Under the pieces are notes generated by a model. That model searched no databases. It saw only the letters and a list, made by a program, of their open reading frames with translations, and had not been told where the DNA came from. From the IMG/VR virus record IMGVR_UViG_2541047757_000012: 40,397 nucleotides of DNA. One strand, given 5' to 3'. This document shows, piece after piece, positions 24,361 through 39,663 of this stretch. This DNA comes from a virus. Taxonomy: Duplodnaviria > Heunggongvirae > Uroviricota > Caudoviricetes. Position numbers and translations under genes: made by a program. The stretch's first letter is position 1, and each line of letters starts with the position of its first letter.

Positions 24361-24386
24361 CAACAAAAAACCCGCCGAAACGGGTT
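24361..24386 (-). terminator. hok mRNA terminator-like hairpin
   Basis: Minus-strand stem AACCCG/CGGGTT followed by T-rich tract, about 70 nt downstream of the hok stop; second hairpin at 24426-24447 in the 3' UTR. Confidence 0.4.
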
Positions 24387-24454
24387 AAGCGCGGGTGCGT
24401 TGAGGATGCCTGACTCATCAGAGGTGGCGAGGGATTTCTCCCTCGCCTGGTCTC

Positions 24455-24610
24455 TTACTCCTCAGGTTCGTAAGCTGTGAAGACAGCGACCTCCGTCTGG
24501 CCGGTTCGGATTCGTACCTCGCAGAGGTCTTTCCTCGTTACCAGTGCCGTCACTATGACGGTTAAACAGATGACGATCAGGGCGACTAACATCGCCTTTT
24601 GCTGCTTCAT
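24455..24610 (-). CDS. hok: Hok/Gef-family type I toxin
   Basis: 51 aa MKQQKAMLVALIVICLTVIVTALVTRKDLCEVRIRTGQTEVAVFTAYEPEE, near-identical to HokD/RelF as I recall it; SD AAGGAGAAG before the ATG at 24610. Confidence 0.8.
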   Translation of the reverse strand: MKQQKAMLVALIVICLTVIVTALVTRKDLCEVRIRTGQTEVAVFTAYEPEE

Positions 24611-24760
24611 AGCCTGCTTCTCCTTGCCTTTCGGCACGTAAGAGGCTAACCTAGATTTGCCGTTCATAGATTGAGCCTCAGATTAATGTTAAGCGTCTTG
24701 CCGGACGCGTAATGTTAACTGGGGCTTTTCTCTGTCTGCCTTACAGTGGCATGCCTGAGG
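24611..24760. promoter_or_regulatory. hok leader region, expected site of Sok-like antisense RNA and mok overlap
   Basis: Inverted repeat TCTGTCTGCC...GGCAGACAG at 24730-24770; in hok/sok loci the antisense RNA is encoded opposite the leader. Exact boundaries not determinable by eye. Confidence 0.35.
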
Positions 24761-24948
24761 CAGACAGCCTCAAGCACCCGCAGCAATCTTACCGACACCG
24801 ATAAGAAAACGCTATTTTTTATTGCCAGCACCTTCTATCCAGGCTAATTTATCTGCGTCAGAACGGCGCAATGCGCTCGCCTGAGATACGTTTACTTGCC
24901 ATGGTAACAACAGGTAACGGCAATTGTTGTTTCTGTTTTGTTTCCTTC

Positions 24949-24984: not shown

Positions 24985-25068
24985 TTAACCCCAACGGCAA
25001 ATCGAATACACCACCAGCGCCACCGCCATCACCATTCCTACCGTTGCGAATGCTTCAGGCCAAGTCAT
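24985..25068 (-). CDS. Hypothetical 27-aa hydrophobic peptide (absent from ORF track)
   Basis: ATGA start/stop overlap with upstream gene at 25065-25068; GGAGG 9 nt upstream; translation MTWPEAFATVGMVMAVALVVYSICRWG; terminator immediately downstream. Confidence 0.4.
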   Translation of the reverse strand: MTWPEAFATVGMVMAVALVVYSICRWG

Positions 25069-25889
25069 CGTAAAATATCCTCCACACCTACCAACCCGTT
25101 CTGCTTCAGATATTCCATCGCCTTATCAGGCAAGCTGCTTAAACTATTGGCGTACTTTAAGGAGTGAGCCAGACGCTTAACCCACATTGTTAATTCGCTA
25201 ACCTGGTTACCTGGCACTGGCGACGCTACTGTCTGTTCCAGAACGTCATCAGGTACTACCGGCTCTACTGCCAACTGACTGGCATATTTGTTAATGGTAA
25301 CGATAAGCTCTTGCTCGGCCTCATCCAGACAATCACCAACACCTCGCCTGTCACCGTCAAAATCATCGAAATCGGCACGAATCCTGGCAACCTCCCGGAT
25401 TGCGGACAACACTTCACCAGGAATTAGCGGAGAGTTGGTTGACGTTTCCGAAATTTCCCGAAAATTATTGGTTGACGAATCCTTGTTTTCCCGAAAGTTT
25501 CCTGACTGAAGCATGGCTTCGCGGCAATCGTTCCATCCTTCAGCATAATCACTATACGCAAGAGGCCAACCTCTTATGTATTCACGCGGCAACTTATCAG
25601 GCACTACCAGCGCTGGCGATGATGCATAAAGTGGTGTTATTTTTGCCCGAAAATCACCTACTTTATGCAGTCGCACCCACCGTTCGACTTCTGCTTTGTC
25701 AGAATACATAGCGGTGAACGTATTATATTCATGGTCAATTTGCGTGAAGGTTGCCTTCCACGCCACCGGCTCTGCTGCCAGTGAGGCCAGTGCAATCTGC
25801 GCCAGTTCCATTTGTTCGCCACGGGCAAGCCCGTTTTCAAGCGGATTTTTAATGAACAATTCAATACGTTCTTTGGTAATAGTGGTCAT
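25065..25889 (-). CDS. Hypothetical phage protein
   Basis: 274-aa ORF; contains an imperfect 33-bp tandem duplication at 25437-25502. Confidence 0.55.
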   Translation of the reverse strand: MTTITKERIELFIKNPLENGLARGEQMELAQIALASLAAEPVAWKATFTQIDHEYNTFTAMYSDKAEVERWVRLHKVGDFRAKITPLYASSPALVVPDKLPREYIRGWPLAYSDYAEGWNDCREAMLQSGNFRENKDSSTNNFREISETSTNSPLIPGEVLSAIREVARIRADFDDFDGDRRGVGDCLDEAEQELIVTINKYASQLAVEPVVPDDVLEQTVASPVPGNQVSELTMWVKRLAHSLKYANSLSSLPDKAMEYLKQNGLVGVEDILR

Positions 25890-25899
25890 GTGTTAATCC

Positions 25900-26163
25900 T
25901 TATCCTGCTGTGCTTTCAACTGATGAGGGGAATAAAATCTTTTCATCAAATCCGGCATTCATATCATGGACAGCAACACACCAATCCATTGACGAACGAT
26001 TATCAAGAGCCTCCATGATTTCATCCATGCGGCGTAGGTCATACAGGTAAATGCTTTTATCGCCAATGGTGTAAAAACCAATTTTTTTCGGTGACGGGCA
26101 GCGATCAAGAACGTTCTGTAATTCGCTCAACCATGCCTGTTCCTTTTTTGTCAAAGTTGCCAT
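25900..26163 (-). CDS. Hypothetical phage protein
   Basis: 87-aa ORF; start preceded by the conserved junction motif carrying an AAGGAGAG SD. Confidence 0.55.
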   Translation of the reverse strand: MATLTKKEQAWLSELQNVLDRCPSPKKIGFYTIGDKSIYLYDLRRMDEIMEALDNRSSMDWCVAVHDMNAGFDEKILFPSSVESTAG

Positions 26164-26164
26164 A

Positions 26165-26656
26165 TCACTCTCCTTTGATGCGAATGCCAGTGGTACTCAT
26201 TCTCCTGATTTCCCAGAGCACACGAGGAACACCACCGTTTCCGACCGGATCGCGTTTACTCCGCAAGGCGACGCTTGATTCCGCCCAGCTTTTTCTTGGA
26301 GGAAGCTCTTTCACACGAACAAAACCAGCTGCGCGAAGAGATGCTCCTGATTCATCTGCCTGGGTGTACGTAATACAACGTTGATAACCCATAGCTTTTG
26401 CTGCTCGCCAGACAGCACCATAAAGCGCGCTGTTAGCGTTGCGTTCTCCTGTGGTACATGTGCGATTTACTTCAAGCGTTAATCCATCGTCCAAATGTCG
26501 TGCAACAGGTCGACCAGCTGTCGCCACACCTATCAATTCTCCGGCATCATTTATCAGACCAATGCTGAATTTATGCCCAACAGGTGGTTTATTGTGTCGG
26601 TGATGTCTGGATATAAACGCCTTCGCAACACGAAGAGTAACCGGTGAAATTTGCAT
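26165..26656 (-). CDS. Hypothetical phage protein
   Basis: ATG at 26656 (MQISPVTLRV...) preceded by the junction motif; C-terminus ...GIRIKGE encoded by the next motif copy. Confidence 0.55.
   Translation of the reverse strand: MQISPVTLRVAKAFISRHHRHNKPPVGHKFSIGLINDAGELIGVATAGRPVARHLDDGLTLEVNRTCTTGERNANSALYGAVWRAAKAMGYQRCITYTQADESGASLRAAGFVRVKELPPRKSWAESSVALRSKRDPVGNGGVPRVLWEIRRMSTTGIRIKGE
26168..26186. repeat. Conserved gene-junction motif CTCTCCTTTGATGCGAATG, copy 1
   Basis: Identical 19-mer also at 26662-26680 and 27592-27610; on the minus strand it encodes IRIKGE-stop of the upstream gene and supplies AAGGAGAG as SD for the downstream gene. Confidence 0.8.
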
Positions 26657-26658
26657 TC

Positions 26659-27135
26659 TCACTCTCCTTTGATGCGAATGTTTACAGCCTGACAAGCCTC
26701 TTCGAGAACCCAGTCAACAGCGTCTTTCCATGCTCCGGTTTCGACTGGCGGATTTTCACGCTTAACCTGTTCATAGAAGCGCACCGCTTTAACCAGTCCT
26801 TCCGGCGCTGGCTGCCCTGTCTGCGCCCTGACCCACGCCACTCGTGCCGGATTCATATGGCACATGTTGTGCCCTCTTTCTTCATGGTAATGCTCTTTAC
26901 CCTCGTTAAACGGCAACGCCTCATTCAGCCCGGCACTTCTGAAATCAGCGTGTAATTGCTCCAGCGCTGCCTCACAGGGGGTACCAATTAATGTGAGATA
27001 ATCGAAAAGATTGGCGCATAAACCATAATTTTGAGAAAACACTCCGCCGGGTTTTGCCCCGTTCTTCAGCCACAAATCATAAGCAATATAAAACCCGTAA
27101 AGCTGTTGCCTGATATTTTCTTTGATTTCTTGCAT
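26659..27135 (-). CDS. Hypothetical phage protein
   Basis: 158-aa ORF; C-terminus ...NIRIKGE encoded by the junction motif. Confidence 0.55.
   Translation of the reverse strand: MQEIKENIRQQLYGFYIAYDLWLKNGAKPGGVFSQNYGLCANLFDYLTLIGTPCEAALEQLHADFRSAGLNEALPFNEGKEHYHEERGHNMCHMNPARVAWVRAQTGQPAPEGLVKAVRFYEQVKRENPPVETGAWKDAVDWVLEEACQAVNIRIKGE
26662..26680. repeat. Conserved gene-junction motif, copy 2
   Basis: Same 19-mer; precedes the ATG at 26656. Confidence 0.8.
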
Positions 27136-27230
27136 TATTTGTTACCGCCCTTTCGGGCGGCCTCCTGATGTTCTGAGGGTGCAGAAATCCCTCCGGTTAA
27201 GGATCGAATTTTTAACAGTGCTAAATTTAA

Positions 27231-27587
27231 TTATTCAGTTCTGGATTTTGTCACCCTGCGTATCCGCGCTTTCGCGTTACGCTCAATCTGAATTAACTTT
27301 TCTATATTTTTCCGTCTTTCCTGTTCCTCCTGGCGCAATAGCCTTACATCATCTGCCAGTCTGGTTTCTCTTTTCGCCACAGAGAGCATCCAGTCAAATG
27401 GCTCCACAACTGCACCGCAGATTTTACAGCGGACCTGACGCTCTTTTTCGTCAACCCGGACAGAAGCGTGATGGCAATATGGTCTTTCCGATGGCTCATA
27501 AAGAAAATTAACCTGATTACGAGGGTCATCCTCTTTTACCGGAAATAAAACGATATTGCTTAACTCATCTTCTGGTTTTATTTCCAT
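27231..27587 (-). CDS. Hypothetical zinc-ribbon protein
   Basis: ATG at 27587 (MEIKPEDE...) preceded by the junction motif; CHH...CKICG cysteine/histidine cluster. Confidence 0.5.
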   Translation of the reverse strand: MEIKPEDELSNIVLFPVKEDDPRNQVNFLYEPSERPYCHHASVRVDEKERQVRCKICGAVVEPFDWMLSVAKRETRLADDVRLLRQEEQERRKNIEKLIQIERNAKARIRRVTKSRTE

Positions 27588-27591
27588 GCTC

Positions 27592-27610
27592 CTCTCCTTT
27601 GATGCGAATG
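27592..27610. repeat. Conserved gene-junction motif, copy 3
   Basis: Same 19-mer (23-nt identity with copy 1 including downstream GCCAG); precedes the ATG at 27587; here it is a leader, not an upstream C-terminus. Confidence 0.8.
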
Positions 27611-27644
27611 CCAGCGGTAATTGAAGCCTGATAGCTAATTTCAC

Positions 27645-28067
27645 TCACAGTACCGCCTCCTGAAAATTACCCTGATAGAAAGCCAGTACACGCTGCATAA
27701 CCTCACTCTTCCGGCACTCGTGACAGATTATGTTCATACTCCTGTCGTAGCGACGTATTTCTCCGTCAGGTAATGACCAGATAAGGTCAGGATCAACCAC
27801 AGATGGTTTCTTCACCTTTGCCCTGGATAGTTTTTTGCGGGCATTTTGCCAGTCCTTACGAGCCTGTTCTGACGGGAATAACCCGTAGCCGGAGTTATAT
27901 ACGTCGCCACTGGCAACCAGCTCTCTGGCGAGAACGCTCATCAGATATCTTGTCGCACCTGTCTTGGCTTCCAGTTGCCGTAACGTCTCACGACCGCTCT
28001 GGCGCACGAGTTCAACCACCTGCCCTTTAATTTTTTCCCGCTCTTCTTGTGTAAATACTTTTGCCAT
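27645..28067 (-). CDS. Hypothetical phage protein
   Basis: ORF with likely start MAKVFTQEE at 28067; contains a CHEC cysteine pair. Confidence 0.45.
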   Translation of the reverse strand: MAKVFTQEEREKIKGQVVELVRQSGRETLRQLEAKTGATRYLMSVLARELVASGDVYNSGYGLFPSEQARKDWQNARKKLSRAKVKKPSVVDPDLIWSLPDGEIRRYDRSMNIICHECRKSEVMQRVLAFYQGNFQEAVL

Positions 28068-28082
28068 AAGCGCCTCCGGCAA

Positions 28083-29607: not shown

Positions 29608-30396
29608 TTACCCCCTGAAGCCTGGCGGGATCGCACTATCCGGTAACGAAACGGTGTTAACCTGTCGGAGTAACGTCTCAGGTCGAACACCTTTCGGCGC
29701 GAACAAGCCCTGGTATTCATTGGCGATGCTGTGTCGAATCACCTGCTCAGGTGAAAAACCCTGCTGGCGGAATTTTTCCAGCTCCCGTATCGCCCCGTTA
29801 GCGCCCTGCTCCGTTCGAATCGGTTTTCGCAATGCCTGCCTGAACTGAACCCACTCATGCCAGAGTGTTTCCGGCAACCAGTCAGGCAGCTCGATAGCCT
29901 CCGGCTCGAATTTTTTAGACGCTCGTTTTTGGCGAGGGGGATTTAGGGGGAGATCAGTATTTATATCTTCCTCTTCCTCTTCCTCTGGTAACGCTTTTTG
30001 ATCCGTTTGTGTAACGCTGGCAGCGTTACCTTTTCGTTTCAGTTCGCGTATTTTTGTTACTCGCTCGTTTGTAACCGCCCGTTTTTTAGAGCTTTTCCCG
30101 TTATGACGTTCAAAGTTAGGTAGAGAAAGCCCACCGTCATTTTCGATCAGCCATCCAACCTGAATTAACGCATCAGCAAAACCAGCCATAAAAGTGATGC
30201 GATCTATTGCACTTTTTGTAACGCCGCGAGCGTTACAATCTGCATTACCGTCTATCATTTGTTGATCCGCCCATGCCCAGAAGCGAATAACCTTCCCTAA
30301 TGCGGCATCTGGATCAATATTCAGAATCTCAGCAAGCCTGAATATTTCCGGCTTATCCGGCGTAATAACCTCGAGCTTTATCCAGTTTGAAGCCAT
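29608..30396 (-). CDS. Replication initiation protein, YdaU-like
   Basis: 262-aa ORF upstream of the DnaC-like gene; acidic EEEEEED linker; position fits a Rac-type replication module. Confidence 0.55.
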   Translation of the reverse strand: MASNWIKLEVITPDKPEIFRLAEILNIDPDAALGKVIRFWAWADQQMIDGNADCNARGVTKSAIDRITFMAGFADALIQVGWLIENDGGLSLPNFERHNGKSSKKRAVTNERVTKIRELKRKGNAASVTQTDQKALPEEEEEEDINTDLPLNPPRQKRASKKFEPEAIELPDWLPETLWHEWVQFRQALRKPIRTEQGANGAIRELEKFRQQGFSPEQVIRHSIANEYQGLFAPKGVRPETLLRQVNTVSLPDSAIPPGFRG

Positions 30397-30473
30397 TTGT
30401 TTTCACCTTGTAACGCTCGCAGCGTTACATTTAACTGATACCGAACAAAACAATCCGGCACGATCAATTTCAA

Positions 30474-33565: not shown

Positions 33566-36500
33566 ATGAGCACCGATAAACAAGTTTACCCACTGTATTA
33601 CGAAGCAAAAAATGACAAAGTAAGAAAACGTCTCGGTATTAAAGGCGGTTTCTACTGGGCTGAAGCGAAAAAATTATCCATTGCCATCTCCCGTGGTGCT
33701 GTTGCGATTGACGATGCTGGCTACGATGAAGATGACTTTAAAAAACCTGTTCGCGTCAATTTGCCCGTTGTTGATGACCTTCCACCAGAAGGCGTATTTG
33801 ATACGGAATTCTGCAACCGTTACGAAAAAGGCGGGGAAGATGGCATCACAATGGTATTTATCGCGCCCTCATCCTCTGCGCAGGACAAACCAGCCAGCAC
33901 TGACAATACCAATGTTAATGGCGAAGACATGACGGAGATTGAGGAGAATATGCTACTCCCGATTTCCGGTCAGGAGCTGCCCATTCGCTGGCTTGCTCAA
34001 CACGGCAGCGAAAAACCGGTAACGCACGTTTCACGCGACGAACTACAGGCATTACACATTGCACGAGCTGAAGAACTACCAGCAGTTACTGCCCTGGCTA
34101 TTTCGCACAAAACCAGCCTGCTCGACCCACTGGAACTTCGCGACCTCCACAAACTGGTTCGCGACACTGACAAAGTTTTCCCTAATCCCGTTAATTCCAG
34201 TCTGGGATTAATGACTGCTTTTTTCGAAGCATACCTGGACGCTGACTACACCGATCGCGGCCTGCTGACAAAAGAGTGGATGAAAGGAAATCGTGTTTCA
34301 CGCATCACCCGCACGGCTTCCGGTGCTAATGCTGGCGGTGGGAACAAAACCGATCGCAATCCGAATTTAGTACACACCCTCGACACACTGGATGTGGAGA
34401 TTGCAGCAGCCACACTTCCGATGGATTTTAATATTTATGAAATTCCGGGCAGCGTTTATCGTCGCGCAAAAGAAGTAGTCCTGAACAAAGAAAGTCCGTT
34501 CAAAGAATGGTCCGCAGCACTTCGTGCAACCCCGGGTATTCTGGACTATTCCCGCGCCGCTATTTTTGCACTTATCCGAAGCGCACACCCTGAATTTTAT
34601 CACTACCCGGGACGCCTTCAGGGGTATATCAACGCCTATTTGACGGAAACTGATCACGAGAACCCCAGCAAGGAAACTCTCACAGCTGCCCGGCATACGC
34701 CGGAAAAAGATATCCTGGAAGAAATTAACCGCGAGGTGGTTACTGAGCGTGAAACAGAAGAAGAAAAACCACAACCATCTGACGCAATGGCAGGTGAACA
34801 GGCAACAACTGAAACAATGGAACCGGATACAACTGAACATGGCCAGAACGCGCAGTCGCTGGATGCTCAGTCGCAGGTGAGTTCCGCTAACCAAGTAAAA
34901 GTCACCGCTGACGAAGTAAACAAAATTATGCAGGCAGCCAATATCAGCCAGCCTGACGCCGATAAGTTACTTGCTGTATCGCGTGGTGAATTTGTTGAGG
35001 GGATTAGCGACCCTAATGATCCGAAATGGGTCAAGGGGATCCAGACTCGCGATTCTGTGAACCAGAACCAGCATGAATCGGAACGGAACGACCAAAAAGC
35101 GGAACAAAACAGCCCAAATGCGCGACAAAATGAACCAGAAGCGCAACAGGAACCGGAAAAAGTCTGCGCCGCCTGCGGTCAGACTGACGGGGATAACTGC
35201 CCTGACTGTGGTGCGGTAATGGGCGACGCAACATACCAGGAAACATTCGATGAAGAGAATCAGGTTGAAGCTAAGGAAAATGATCCGGAGGAAATGGAAG
35301 GCGCTGAACATCCGCACAAGGAGAACGCTGGCAACCATCCGCATCACGATTACAGTGATGAAACTGGTGAAGCGTCAGCTCCTGTAGCAACTGAAATCAT
35401 GTGGCCGTCATATTTCGAGCCAGGCCGCTATGAAAACCTCCCGAACGAGGTTTATCACTCCGCCAACGGAATAAGCAGCACGATGCTGAAGGATGCCCGT
35501 ATCAGCCTGATGTATTACCACGGGCGGCACATTGCCGGAACTATTCCGAACGAGGAAAGTGATGCACTGCTGCGTGGGCGGATCATTCACAGTTATGTTC
35601 TGGAAACGGATAAATTCGCTGATGAATATGTCATTCCGGTACCGGTTCCTGAATATGTGGTTACTACTTCTAACGAACTGATCGCCATCATTAAAAAACA
35701 CAATGCCAGTCTGCCAGCACTGATGACACCAGAGCAGATGAAAGAGTGGATCGAAAGCTACAACAGCACTCTTATACAGCCACTGTCTGTAAGTGCTGGG
35801 GGCGAAGAAACAGGCATCCTTTACGGTTCGCTTCCGGTGGAATTTCGGCGTATTCCTGAGGGGGAAAAACATACAGCATCAGCAATGAAAGCCTGTATTA
35901 AAGAATACAACGCAAGCCTCCCTCCTCTGTTGAAAACCAGTGGAGCACGGGAGCAGCTTCTGGATCAAATTGAAACTGTAGACCCAGAACTGGCAAAAAA
36001 AGAACGTGCTAAATCTTTGCCTTACAACATCAGTGGCACAAAAGAGCAATTAACCGAAATCGCACGGAAAATTCGCCCGGAACTGGTGACACTGGAGGAC
36101 TGGCAAAAACGCCAGCAAGAAGAAAACGCCGGGAAAACGTTTATCAGTCTGGATATGTATGAACAGGCAAAAAATATTCACGCGGCACTGCAAAACAATA
36201 CCGATGCAGCAAGGCTACTCAACCACCCGGATCGCAAATCTGAAATCAGCTATTTCGGGTTTGATGAAGAAACCGGGCTGGAAATCAGGGTCCGTCCTGA
36301 TATCGAAATCCGGCTGCCATACGAAAGCATTTGCGCTGACGTGAAGTCAGTCAGCCTCGGTTATGTGCGGCAGGAACGACTTAAAGATCGCCTGCACCGT
36401 GAAATTATTGAGCGTGATTATCACCTCAGCGCCGCAATGTATTGCGATGTGGCAAACCTGGACAAATTTTTCTGGATCTTCGTCAACAAAGATGCTGGCT

Positions 36501-36691
36501 ATCACTGGGTGGCTGTCGTGGAAGCCTCGCAGGAACTCCTGGAACTTGGTCGACAGGAGTATCGCCGGACGCTACGCCAGATAAACGAAGCCCTAGAGAC
36601 AAACAACTGGCCAGCACCGATTACCGAAAGTTATACCGACGAATTAAACGACTTTGATCTTCGTCGTCTTGAAGCACTGCATCTGGCTTAA
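33566..36691 (+). CDS. RecE-like exonuclease with long N-terminal extension
   Basis: 1041 aa; C-terminal third has PD-(D/E)xK-like features (...RVRPDIEIRLPYESICADVKSV...); followed by a coupled annealing-protein gene; internal Cys4 cluster CAACGQTDGDNCPDCG and acidic low-complexity region. Confidence 0.55.
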   Translation: MSTDKQVYPLYYEAKNDKVRKRLGIKGGFYWAEAKKLSIAISRGAVAIDDAGYDEDDFKKPVRVNLPVVDDLPPEGVFDTEFCNRYEKGGEDGITMVFIAPSSSAQDKPASTDNTNVNGEDMTEIEENMLLPISGQELPIRWLAQHGSEKPVTHVSRDELQALHIARAEELPAVTALAISHKTSLLDPLELRDLHKLVRDTDKVFPNPVNSSLGLMTAFFEAYLDADYTDRGLLTKEWMKGNRVSRITRTASGANAGGGNKTDRNPNLVHTLDTLDVEIAAATLPMDFNIYEIPGSVYRRAKEVVLNKESPFKEWSAALRATPGILDYSRAAIFALIRSAHPEFYHYPGRLQGYINAYLTETDHENPSKETLTAARHTPEKDILEEINREVVTERETEEEKPQPSDAMAGEQATTETMEPDTTEHGQNAQSLDAQSQVSSANQVKVTADEVNKIMQAANISQPDADKLLAVSRGEFVEGISDPNDPKWVKGIQTRDSVNQNQHESERNDQKAEQNSPNARQNEPEAQQEPEKVCAACGQTDGDNCPDCGAVMGDATYQETFDEENQVEAKENDPEEMEGAEHPHKENAGNHPHHDYSDETGEASAPVATEIMWPSYFEPGRYENLPNEVYHSANGISSTMLKDARISLMYYHGRHIAGTIPNEESDALLRGRIIHSYVLETDKFADEYVIPVPVPEYVVTTSNELIAIIKKHNASLPALMTPEQMKEWIESYNSTLIQPLSVSAGGEETGILYGSLPVEFRRIPEGEKHTASAMKACIKEYNASLPPLLKTSGAREQLLDQIETVDPELAKKERAKSLPYNISGTKEQLTEIARKIRPELVTLEDWQKRQQEENAGKTFISLDMYEQAKNIHAALQNNTDAARLLNHPDRKSEISYFGFDEETGLEIRVRPDIEIRLPYESICADVKSVSLGYVRQERLKDRLHREIIERDYHLSAAMYCDVANLDKFFWIFVNKDAGYHWVAVVEASQELLELGRQEYRRTLRQINEALETNNWPAPITESYTDELNDFDLRRLEALHLA

Positions 36692-37794
36692 TGGAGAACC
36701 TGACCATGCAAAATACCAATATCATCACGACAGAGCAGACACCAAATACCATTTCTGCCAGTAACACTATTTTTAACGTTCAGGCGTTGACGCAACTTCA
36801 GGCAGTAGCCGGGTTGATGTCACAGGCCACCGTCACAGTTCCCGATCACCTTCGCGGAAATCCTGCCGATTGCATGGCAATCATCATGCAAGCCATGCAA
36901 TGGGGCATGAACCCCTACGCTGTGGCTCAGAAAACACACCTGGTAAACGGAGTTCTGGGTTATGAAGCACAACTGGTTAACGCTGTGATCTCTAGCTCAA
37001 GTGCAATTGTAGGCCGCTTCCATTACAAGTACGAGGGAGACTGGGAGAAATGCTCTCGCACCCGAGTGGAGACCGTTAAGAAAACGGCCAAAGGAGGCGG
37101 AATCTATGAGAAAAAAGAAACGATCCCATGTTGGACCAGTGAAGATGAGTATGGTCTCTCAGTTCGAGTTGGTGCAGTTCTTCGCGGTGAAAGTGAGATT
37201 ACCTGGGGAGAACCGGTGTTTCTTTCCAGCGTGATTACGCGTAATTCTCCTTTATGGACCTCAAACCCGAAACAACAGCTCGCCTATCTGGCGTTGAAAT
37301 ACTGGGCTCGCCTTTATTGTCCTGACGTCATCCTGGGCGTGTATACCCCGGACGAACTGGAAGAGCCACAGGAAAAAATCATCAATCCTGTGCCGGTACA
37401 GAATTATAGCGAGGTAAGCGAGCAGCGAACAGAAACCATCGAACAGCGTATTGACGAAGCGTGGATTGATGAATTCCGGCAGCGTGTCGAAAGCGCGGCC
37501 ACGACTGAGGAAACCACTGCATTACGCCAAGAGATAGAGGATCAGAAAAACCAGATCGGCGAATTCTTTGCCGAGCTTAAAGGAAAAGTGGTTCGGCGTC
37601 ATCACCGTCTCAATGCTATTGCCAGTATCGAGAAGATGATAAATGACCTTCCTTCATCAGGTGATCCAGAAGCAGAACAAAAATTTACTGCTCTGGAAAA
37701 TACGCTGAATGCTGCCCGGCCACATCTGGGTGAATTATATGAGGCGTATAAAACGACACTGACAGATATGAAACCAGAATATATCGGCTCCTGA
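36691..37794 (+). CDS. Putative single-strand annealing protein (RecT/Red-beta-like)
   Basis: 367-aa ORF coupled (TAATG overlap) to the exonuclease gene; assignment is mainly by position. Confidence 0.45.
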   Translation: MENLTMQNTNIITTEQTPNTISASNTIFNVQALTQLQAVAGLMSQATVTVPDHLRGNPADCMAIIMQAMQWGMNPYAVAQKTHLVNGVLGYEAQLVNAVISSSSAIVGRFHYKYEGDWEKCSRTRVETVKKTAKGGGIYEKKETIPCWTSEDEYGLSVRVGAVLRGESEITWGEPVFLSSVITRNSPLWTSNPKQQLAYLALKYWARLYCPDVILGVYTPDELEEPQEKIINPVPVQNYSEVSEQRTETIEQRIDEAWIDEFRQRVESAATTEETTALRQEIEDQKNQIGEFFAELKGKVVRRHHRLNAIASIEKMINDLPSSGDPEAEQKFTALENTLNAARPHLGELYEAYKTTLTDMKPEYIGS

Positions 37795-38333: not shown

Positions 38334-38621
38334 ATGGCAATGAATCTTGTGACACTCAAAACGTGGGGAAAACTCAGATATCCGGATAACCCACCATCAA
38401 TATCAACGCTGAGACGATGGGCAAGGAATGGAAACATTTATCCTGCACCTGAACTACACGGGAGGAGTTACAGGGTGGTTCCGGAGGCTTTCTATATCAA
38501 CCCAAATAAGGTTGATACCGATATAACACACCATCAGCCTAATGGGCGACAAGGGAGAGACAGTCCGTTACTGGAGAAGTTAAAACATGCAGCGGAAAAA
38601 ATACGATCCCAATTTGCCTAG
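38334..38621 (+). CDS. xis: Excisionase, lambda Xis-like
   Basis: N-terminal ...VTLKTWGKLRYPDNPPSISTLRRWARNGNIYPAPELHGRSYRVV... parallels lambda Xis; 3' end overlaps int. Second ATG at 38340 has better SD spacing. Confidence 0.7.
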   Translation: MAMNLVTLKTWGKLRYPDNPPSISTLRRWARNGNIYPAPELHGRSYRVVPEAFYINPNKVDTDITHHQPNGRQGRDSPLLEKLKHAAEKIRSQFA

Positions 38622-39663
38622 GAACTTAACATATCGAAGGAGGGACAAAGCATATTACTGGCGCAACCCTCTGACGAAAGAAGAATTTACACTAGGTAAA
38701 ATTTCAAGAAGAGATGCAATCGCGCAGGCAATTGAAGCAAATCATTATATATACAAAAACTACTCTCCTGCTGCCTTAATTGAAAAACTTAAAGGGTTCG
38801 ACTCATTTACTATGGCAGACTGGATTGAACGTTACAAAACGATTCTTATAAGGAGAAAAGTGTCCAGAAATACTTATAAAATTCGGGTAAATCAACTGGA
38901 GACAATAAAAGAAAAATTGGGAGAGATTTTACTGACAGAAATAACCACTCGCCATATTGCCGAGTTTCTTGATTTGTGGATTGAAGGAGGGAAAAACACA
39001 ATGGCAGGATCAATGCGTTCTGTGTTGTCTGATATGTTTCGTGAGGCCATTGTTGAAGGACGTATATCTCAAAATCCAGTAACGCCAACAAGAGCACCGA
39101 AAATAGTAGTTACAAGAGAACGACTGAAACTAAAGACATACAACTGCATCAGGGAGGCAGCAGATCAACTTCCGGCATGGTTCCCATTAGCTATGGATTT
39201 AGCCCTTGTAACAGGACAACGTCGCGAAGACATAACGAATATGCGGTTTAGTGATATTTATGATGATCGTCTCCACATCAGGCAAATTAAGACAGGAATG
39301 ATGATTGCTATCCCCCTGTCACTCAGCCTTCCTGTCGCTGGTCTACGGCTTGGTACAGTAGTTGAACAGTGCCGCCTGGTAAGCCGGGGAGATTATCTAA
39401 TCAGTGCCGGGATTAGAAAAAACAGCCCTGACGGCAGCATTCACCCGGATGGCCTGACAAAAAAATTTGTCGCAGCCAGAAAATTAACAGGTATCCAGTT
39501 CAGTGAAAACCCACCAACTTTTCACGAGATCAGAAGCCTGGCTGGACGATTGTACAAAGAAACATGTGGAGAAGAATTTGCTCAGCGTCTACTTGGCCAC
39601 ACATCGGAGAAGACAACAAAAATGTATCTTGATGAGAGAGAAAAAACGTACTTACTGCTCTGA
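38587..39663 (+). CDS. int: Integrase, lambda-family tyrosine recombinase
   Basis: 358 aa; C-terminal catalytic region ...[11 protein letters not shown]...[18 protein letters not shown] with conserved Tyr; overlaps xis; adjacent to the att region. Confidence 0.9.

Follow-up and report, generated by a model that had tools for sequence, protein, structure and literature searches.

A gene-boundary sequence that combines a shared C-terminus with a ribosome-binding site and is a likely crossover point in the accessory regions of lambdoid prophages

Since 1978, it has been debated whether the mosaicism of phage genomes arises through homologous exchange at linker sequences or through random illegitimate joining followed by selection. 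Linker or boundary sequences were described by Susskind & Botstein (1978), Botstein (1980) and, for phage HK620, Clark et al. (2001) (as reported in PMC3233612, PMC3029335 and PMC2839356): they are short and conserved, lie at gene boundaries with non-homologous modules alongside, and were proposed as sites of homologous exchange. Here we describe a repeat of this kind in a 40,397-nucleotide (nt) stretch of DNA, IMG/VR virus record IMGVR_UViG_2541047757_000012 (Caudoviricetes), which is an Escherichia coli Rac-like lambdoid prophage and whose full length is referred to below as the window. We consider it likely that this repeat is a conserved inter-gene linker, or boundary sequence, of the accessory regions of lambdoid prophages, acting both as a ribosome-binding site (RBS) and as a crossover point. 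All three of its copies in the window stand at gene junctions, their flanks are non-homologous and breakpoints coincide with them; the linker is a clean and abundant instance of the known kind. It differs from the sequences of Botstein and Clark in that it is partly coding and contains an RBS, and in that its use is quantified here (48 pairings of flanking families, with breakpoints no more than about 10 nt away, and an occurrence that extends to both early operons, P7 and 57% of E. coli genomes). A first-pass annotation of this DNA, made from the sequence alone, had called such conserved junctions a hallmark of lambdoid phages; this is apt for the present case but overstated as a general rule, as most mosaic joints of phages have yielded no conserved boundary sequence (PMC3029335, PMC3233612).

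Other described systems resemble the linker in part. In the promoter-early stem-loop (PeSL) cassettes of T4-type phages (Arbiol et al. 2010, PMC2839356), repeated regulatory sequences likewise flank small accessory open reading frames (ORFs), aid modular shuffling and supply expression signals. A PeSL, however, consists of a promoter and a terminator stem-loop, and its cassette is transcriptionally isolated, whereas the linker has none of promoter, terminator or structure and embeds its genes in a polycistronic early operon via a Shine-Dalgarno (SD) sequence and a stop-start junction, with coding overlap. Cluster K mycobacteriophages are said to possess start-associated sequences (SAS), which Pope and colleagues reportedly described in 2011 as short, conserved, asymmetric sequences that include the RBS and lie directly upstream of many starts in one genome; they are reportedly intergenic, numerous in each genome and thought to act in translation. 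We know of no indication that SAS mark mosaic joints or encode a common C-terminus, and the linker, unlike them, is partly coding and ends at the start codon. Integron attC cassettes share with the linker the organisation into promoter-less single-gene cassettes, arranged in co-oriented arrays with a recurring boundary site; the linker differs in having neither integrase dependence nor imperfect inverted repeats nor a folded single-strand site, and its exchange is presumably homologous. In the literature that we searched, which did not extend to Clark et al. (2001), no description of the peptide IRIKGE encoded by the linker was found and the nucleotide motif returned only unrelated primer matches; the copy at hkaG|hkaF of HK620 may already be listed by Clark et al. 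(2001).

The window contains exactly three copies of the 19-mer CTCTCCTTTGATGCGAATG (26168-26186, 26662-26680 and 27592-27610), and still only three matches when up to three mismatches are allowed (expected number 0.01); none of 100 dinucleotide shuffles gave three matches, so that the three copies reported by the first-pass annotation are confirmed. In an independent repeat search, the 19-mer came first among the direct-repeat families of the region; its copies are spaced 494 and 930 nt apart. Exact pairwise overlap amounts to 22 nt between copies 1 and 2 (CATTCGCATCAAAGGAGAGTGA), to 23 nt between copies 1 and 3 (27 of 28 nt with one mismatch) and to 19 nt between copies 2 and 3. Extra degenerate copies were absent from the window even with up to 10 mismatches in 31 nt allowed. 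All copies, including degenerate ones, lie on the transcribed strand and none on the opposite one.

Read on the coding (minus) strand, the motif is ATT CGC ATC AAA GGA GAG, which encodes IRIKGE. Copy 1 (26161-26191, minus strand; ACTGGC-ATTCGCATCAAAGGAGAG-TGATATG, with one mismatch to the 31-nt consensus given below) holds the end of the XF1762/Mom-like gene (...TTGIRIKGE*), the SD sequence AAGGAG, the stop TGA and, after 1 nt, the ATG of a gene for 87 amino acids (aa). Copy 2 (26654-26685, minus strand; GTAAAC-ATTCGCATCAAAGGAGAG-TGAGAATG) holds the end of a 158-aa gene (...VNIRIKGE*), the SD sequence, the stop and, after 2 nt (TGA-GA-ATG), the ATG of the XF1762 gene; it matches the consensus only from ATTCGC onward, and most relatives read ATTGGC, with one mismatch, at its position. 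Copy 3 (27585-27615, minus strand; GCTGGC-ATTCGCATCAAAGGAGAG-GAGCATG) lacks a stop behind its GAG and provides the SD sequence and ATG of a 118-aa zinc-ribbon gene, lying 35 nt past the stop of lygF/DUF977 and 4 nt ahead of the zinc-ribbon ATG (27587). Between them, the three copies mark off two cassettes of the pR operon downstream of lygF, one with a single gene (XF1762/Mom-like) and one with two genes.

AAGGAG stands 6-7 nt ahead of each ATG, in agreement with the earlier claim that the motif contains the SD sequence of the next gene, and the gap between stop and start is 1-2 nt at copies 1 and 2. This is the geometry of a coupled junction, with the SD sequence inside the upstream ORF, within the 5-9-nt range before the start, and the stop within a few nucleotides of it; SD sequence, stop and start together take up no more than about 16 nt. 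The claim that two otherwise unrelated proteins end in an identical hexapeptide is equally correct: the 163-aa XF1762/Mom-like protein and the 158-aa protein have only IRIKGE in common (BLASTP E=0.22), their last 6 residues alone being aligned. Copy 3 had been taken for a mere leader with an SD sequence. Its role as SD sequence stands, and the notion of a pure leader does not, since the copy lies inside a mini-ORF of 27 codons (27565-27648, minus strand; MSEISYQASITAGIRIKGEEHGNKTRR*), whose GTG start, preceded by AGGAGG at a distance of 7 nt, overlaps the stop of lygF (GTGA), and which runs on past GAG and overlaps the start of the zinc-ribbon gene. In other genomes, upstream genes that read through the copy 3 variant overlap the zinc-ribbon start in the same way. 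Substitutions in the mini-ORF among relatives look mostly non-synonymous (as judged by inspection of flanks, uncounted), and we therefore take the mini-ORF for the probable remnant of the 3' end of a lost gene.

The 18-mer core of the motif was found by exact scan on at least 120 IMG/VR contigs, and 125 junctions were aligned among the matches listed, 118 of them with enough flank on both sides for clustering over 200 nt each way. These 118 junctions fall into 16 unrelated upstream and 19 unrelated downstream families, joined in 48 distinct pairings. To locate breakpoints, one junction pair was compared for each family combination. With the same upstream and different downstream flanks, homology in 79 of 83 comparisons ends 0-10 nt past GGAGAG, most often 7 nt past it, which corresponds to TGAnATG, and the common side extends over 91 to at least 150 nt; with the same downstream and different upstream flanks, it ends 0-13 nt ahead of ATTCGC in 73 of 76. 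Taken together, 152 of 159 comparisons have their break at an edge of the 18-nt core, either 0-10 nt past its right end or 0-13 nt before its left end, and the BLAST matches H150 and H169 begin or end at the linker. With so many family pairings and with homology ending at its edges, the motif is a sharply bounded junction at which genes were reassorted. The suggestion of the first-pass annotation that it marks module boundaries is thereby upheld, as is its expectation that alignment of flanking genes among relatives would place mosaic breakpoints precisely at the motif.

With one representative taken per family, the consensus is GCTGGC-ATTCGCATCAAAGGAGAG-TGA(T/G)ATG (31 nt), which spans the last codons of the upstream gene to the downstream ATG; in five families it is extended to 37 nt by an extra CGCGCC, and conservation drops sharply beyond the 31-mer. 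The arrangement TGA-N-ATG is present in 17 of the 19 downstream families, and the reading frame through the linker is common to 14 of 15 upstream families.

The linker is by no means confined to this genome. It is present in 427 phage records and in 3087 of 5426 complete E. coli genomes (57%), which have a median of 2 places each and at most 11; of the 6795 places in E. coli, 439 are on plasmids. In phage lambda, ea22 ends in ...MMSDAGIRIKGE*, followed by a decayed start (TGAGATC); in HK620 the linker lies at hkaG|hkaF, and it also occurs in many Shiga toxin (Stx) phages and Salmonella phages. In the P1-family phage-plasmid P7 (AF503408, 88328-89531; locus L247, 1847-3050), a linker matching the consensus perfectly (37/37) stands between the Ead-like upf88.3 and upf89.0, in a C1-controlled operon. 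This perfect P7 linker and the 439 plasmid places imply exchange between lambdoid phages and P1-like elements; for recent mosaics, such exchange was not detected by De Paepe et al. (2014). The full three-copy arrangement of the window was found in 7 genomes only, and the IMG/VR loci listed mostly have a single copy. By their marker genes, about 48 loci belong to the pR compartment (lygF to hok/Q) and about 45 to the pL 'ea/exo-xis' compartment (exo or abc2 to ea8.5/xis/int); linkers in both are co-oriented with early transcription, and many flanking gene families are common to the two. Among GTDB species representatives, 32 of 42 exact matches are lambda control-DNA contamination, and the genuine ones come from Escherichia, Shigella and Shimwellia only. 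Within this set of matches (loci L125-L166), the contaminating ones come from public assemblies of unrelated taxa (Streptomyces, Bacillus, Shewanella, Prevotella and others) and are 99-100% lambda DNA, on tiny or ~48.5-kb low-coverage contigs.

Which genes did the linker come from? Of 10 upstream ORFs taken from other loci, 7 belong to Ead_Ea22 (PF13935), a domain that ends far ahead of the tail; from this we place the native home of the linker at the 3' end of ead/ea22-type genes, lambda ea22 included. The linker also ends at least 4 non-Ea22 genes, i.e. those of XF1762, of the 158-aa protein, and of Lc3 and Lc7 (the latter two without a Pfam match). In the window, PF13935 is found neither in the XF1762/Mom-like protein of 163 aa nor in the 158-aa protein, which belongs to no Pfam family, so that both genes carry an Ea22-type 3' tail without belonging to Ea22. 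The Pectobacterium phage ZF40 protein gp36 is 76% identical to the XF1762/Mom-like protein and ends LWEVRR-TAG, without the tail; the window gene (26165-26197, minus strand, compared with L124:352-759) has an ATG at the position of the ZF40 TAG, followed by the 11-aa tail MSTTGIRIKGE. As an ATG stands where ZF40 has its stop, the XF1762 tail may derive from a downstream mini-gene that collapsed and was fused in frame. Judged by these comparisons, the linker appears to have been grafted onto unrelated genes, on which IRIKGE would be a passenger peptide.

An unbiased sample of 79 loci was picked via the downstream zinc-ribbon protein alone (the best 80 loci being 97-100% identical). The linker is present at every locus of this sample, nearly always as the copy 3 variant; its 12-mer ATCAAAGGAGAG is invariant, while some codons of the peptide-coding part are changed from R to H or from I to V; among relatives of copy 2, a change from R to G is also found. 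An invariant SD 12-mer, fixed synonymous positions and tolerated amino-acid changes argue for a constraint on the DNA or RNA, i.e. on the SD sequence and the junction, and not on the peptide. The opposite possibility, that the C-terminal peptide (A)GIRIKGE is itself functional as an interaction, localisation or degradation tag and that nucleotide conservation simply follows, would fit the common reading frame of the upstream families and the report that all Ea22 proteins end in '+GE', the significance of which was called unknown (Dydecka et al. 2020, PMC7093339). We find it highly improbable: besides the variants and the position of the invariant part, the tail is missing from the 76%-identical homolog outside this phage group, lies outside the Pfam and NCBIfam domain models, is found in the context of a relic mini-ORF at lygF and is followed by a dead start in lambda.

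The '+GE' tripeptide of Ea22, lambda Ea22 ending in DAGIRIKGE, is the linker seen at the protein level. It is explained by the codons AAA GGA GAG, which contain the next gene's SD sequence AAGGAG. The Ea22 papers treat '+GE' as a protein motif of one family, whereas the linker is a DNA/RNA junction that is also found on non-Ea22 genes and in a relic or non-coding context. The C-terminal domains of Ea22 have themselves been described as mosaic (PMC10834534).

How might such a junction work? The linker unit consists of the last codons of one gene (..AGIRIKGE), a strong SD AAGGAG and a stop 1-2 nt from the next ATG. It would act as RBS of the downstream gene, set, as its geometry suggests, for termination-reinitiation coupling, so that a promoter-less ORF placed behind it would be expressed from the early operon; no promoter of its own would be needed, and therefore any gene behind a linker could be expressed in this way. 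Since the same ~31 bp (31-37) lies between unrelated genes in thousands of prophages, it could also serve as crossover point for homologous recombination by phage RecET or Red, or by RecA. Crossovers at the linker would reassort upstream and downstream genes, with the second crossover taking place in another linker copy, as with the XF1762 cassette, or alternatively in a conserved neighbour, for example the Ea22 coiled-coil, lygF, exo or xis. The minimal efficient pairing segment is 23-27 bp for Red-beta and 31-34 bp for RecA (PMC3945230), to be compared with a consensus of 31-37 nt and with the 19-23 nt over which the window's copies are exactly alike. These phages carry Red or RecET, and the window encodes RecE (exonuclease VIII; 33566-36691, plus strand) and RecT (36691-37794, plus strand), the prophage's own short-homology recombination system, which we infer to be the catalyst of exchange at the linker.

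No significant RNA fold was found at the three copies when 80-86 nt were folded (z scores -0.14, +1.26 and +0.85), and absence of structure fits an open RBS, as would be expected. An RNA element was rejected on these scores and for want of an Rfam match at any copy (E up to 1). Promoters or terminators belonging to the cassettes themselves, as in the moron model, were also rejected, their counts not exceeding those in shuffles, with one weak promoter-like site on the coding strand. A Chi site was discarded by inspection, GCTGGCAT differing from GCTGGTGG.

The high constancy of the sequence and the cassette-like organisation could also be taken to mean that the motif is the target of a dedicated factor, be it a site-specific recombinase of the integron type, a homing nuclease, or an RNA- or protein-binding translational regulator. 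To us this is scarcely credible, as the motif has neither dyad symmetry nor a stable fold nor an Rfam match, no conserved enzyme neighbours it and its contexts differ among pL, pR and P7. Join points, moreover, vary within the linker, which is expected of homologous and not of site-specific exchange. An integron-like attC site in particular was rejected on the fold scores above, on the lack of an inverted repeat at the motif, and because the sole integrase of the window (38587-39663) is a lambda-type Int.

Several observations weigh against the linker as a crossover point under selection. The junction of lygF with the zinc-ribbon gene (L0 to R0) showed no variation in 23 of 23 loci. None of the 118 junctions listed is a product of deletion between copies of the window, with lygF joined to the 87-aa or the XF1762 gene. 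The window's own copies are exactly identical over 19-23 nt only, at or below the published pairing minima, and a neighbouring mosaic joint, at 27132-27143, has no linker. In the 79 loci, linker diversity is 0.076 compared with 0.074 at third-codon positions of the adjacent gene, so that extra selection on the whole 31-mer is not supported, a comparison that is not decisive because the best 80 loci are 97-100% identical. Recombination at the linker is read from a pattern, no event having been directly observed, and translational coupling is suggested by geometry only.

Some of these points would be natural under the Hendrix model, in which the linker is an inherited ead/ea22 3' end with an RBS kept by selection on the SD sequence, and mosaicism comes from illegitimate recombination followed by selection for intact genes. 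Upstream genes are indeed mostly Ead_Ea22, linker diversity equals the synonymous diversity of the neighbouring gene, repeats inside the window share only 19-23 nt, the neighbouring joint has no linker at all, and most phage joints lack conserved sequences according to the literature (PMC3029335). Illegitimate joining, however, would not recreate a 31-mer at 48 pairings with breakpoints within about 10 nt on each side, and the linker is found on at least 4 non-Ea22 genes, in two operons and in one phage-plasmid. We therefore hold this account to be unlikely and favour the linker as a homologous crossover point.

The neighbouring joint lies at the edge of a 95-nt gap between the zinc-ribbon and 158-aa genes (27132-27230), which is read as a mosaic joint not using the linker because the homology breakpoint of many relatives coincides with it. 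The gap contains a GC hairpin (GGCCGCCCGAAAGGGCGGT) without a T-run.

A broader reading, which we advance tentatively and regard as possible rather than probable, is that the linker supports a recombinase-driven, integrase-free network of cassette exchange across both early operons and P1/P7-type phage-plasmids (in E. coli, Shigella and Salmonella), kept by second-order selection for evolvability. If so, any ORF fused in frame to a linker would gain an RBS and a coupling signal and become exchangeable, accessory genes such as those for DNA modification or anti-defence would be favoured, and both the hypervariable C-terminal domains of Ea22 and its '+GE' end would be explained.

Independently of this broader reading, the linker marks slots for exchangeable accessory genes in lambdoid prophages, for example Mom-like and DpdA-like DNA-modification genes. 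As a Mom-like gene and a DpdA-like homolog both stand at a linker, their presence suggests that linker slots often hold DNA-modification or anti-restriction functions. The DpdA-like gene forms downstream family R6 (loci L016, L020, L060 and L062) and encodes a 251-aa queuine tRNA-ribosyltransferase homolog (phrog_887, E=2e-103). For annotators, the IRIKGE tail on unrelated proteins is a warning, being a passenger of the junction and not a domain. Finally, the two models of mosaicism debated since 1978 become directly testable in lambda-by-prophage crosses, since the linker is abundant, sharply bounded, present in lambda ea22, located beside Red/RecET and close to the minimal pairing length.

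The segment of the window that holds the junctions is 99.9% identical to strain QA-1986 630 (NZ_CP101920). On the minus strand the gene order is ydaU-like, ydaV/DnaC-like, ydaW/DUF1627, lygF/DUF977, copy 3, the 118-aa zinc-ribbon gene, the 158-aa gene, copy 2, the 163-aa XF1762/Mom-like gene, copy 1, the 87-aa gene, a 274-aa gene and hok/sok. The lygF/DUF977 gene (27645-28082, minus strand) is the last conserved gene of the replication module and the left anchor of the pR-operon cassette region. The 118-aa zinc-ribbon protein (phrog_1621; 27231-27587, minus strand) represents downstream family R0, which has 6 different upstream partner families. The 158-aa protein (26659-27135, minus strand), which ends in the linker and is not an Ead_Ea22 protein, has no assigned function; the last ~147 nt of its gene are common to an ead/Ea22-like gene of another genome. 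The 163-aa XF1762/Mom-like protein (26165-26656, minus strand) is a predicted DNA-modification protein whose gene makes up the 494-bp cassette between copies 2 and 1. The 87-aa gene (phrog_1714; 25900-26163, minus strand) represents downstream family R1, with 5 upstream partner families, and occurs in both pL and pR compartments.

Further along the minus strand, segments of the 274-aa ORF (25065-25889), which is intact in the window, match several different PHROGs, and its N-terminus (MTTITKERIELF...ALASLAAEPV) is common to several linker-following genes elsewhere; the RefSeq annotation of the 99.9%-identical genome splits it into two pseudogene fragments (DUF551). Directly downstream of the cassette region lies a hok/sok type I toxin-antitoxin module (24455-24779, minus strand). 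Its Hok-family ORF spans 24455-24667, and 24605-24779 matches the sok antisense RNA (RF01794) with 112 bits; related loci usually have hok as the landmark at the right-hand end of their pR cassette region. Just downstream of hok, the Hfq-binding small RNA family isrK gives a weak, sub-threshold match (24365-24446, minus strand; E=0.012, 26.9 bits where the gathering score is 50). On the other side of the region, a palindrome of 20-24 bp, TGTAACGC-N4-GCGTTACA, is present in three copies (30010-30033, 30217-30240 and 30409-30432) within and just upstream of the ydaU (O-like) replication gene; the copies are spaced by ~200 bp and resemble iterons or operators.

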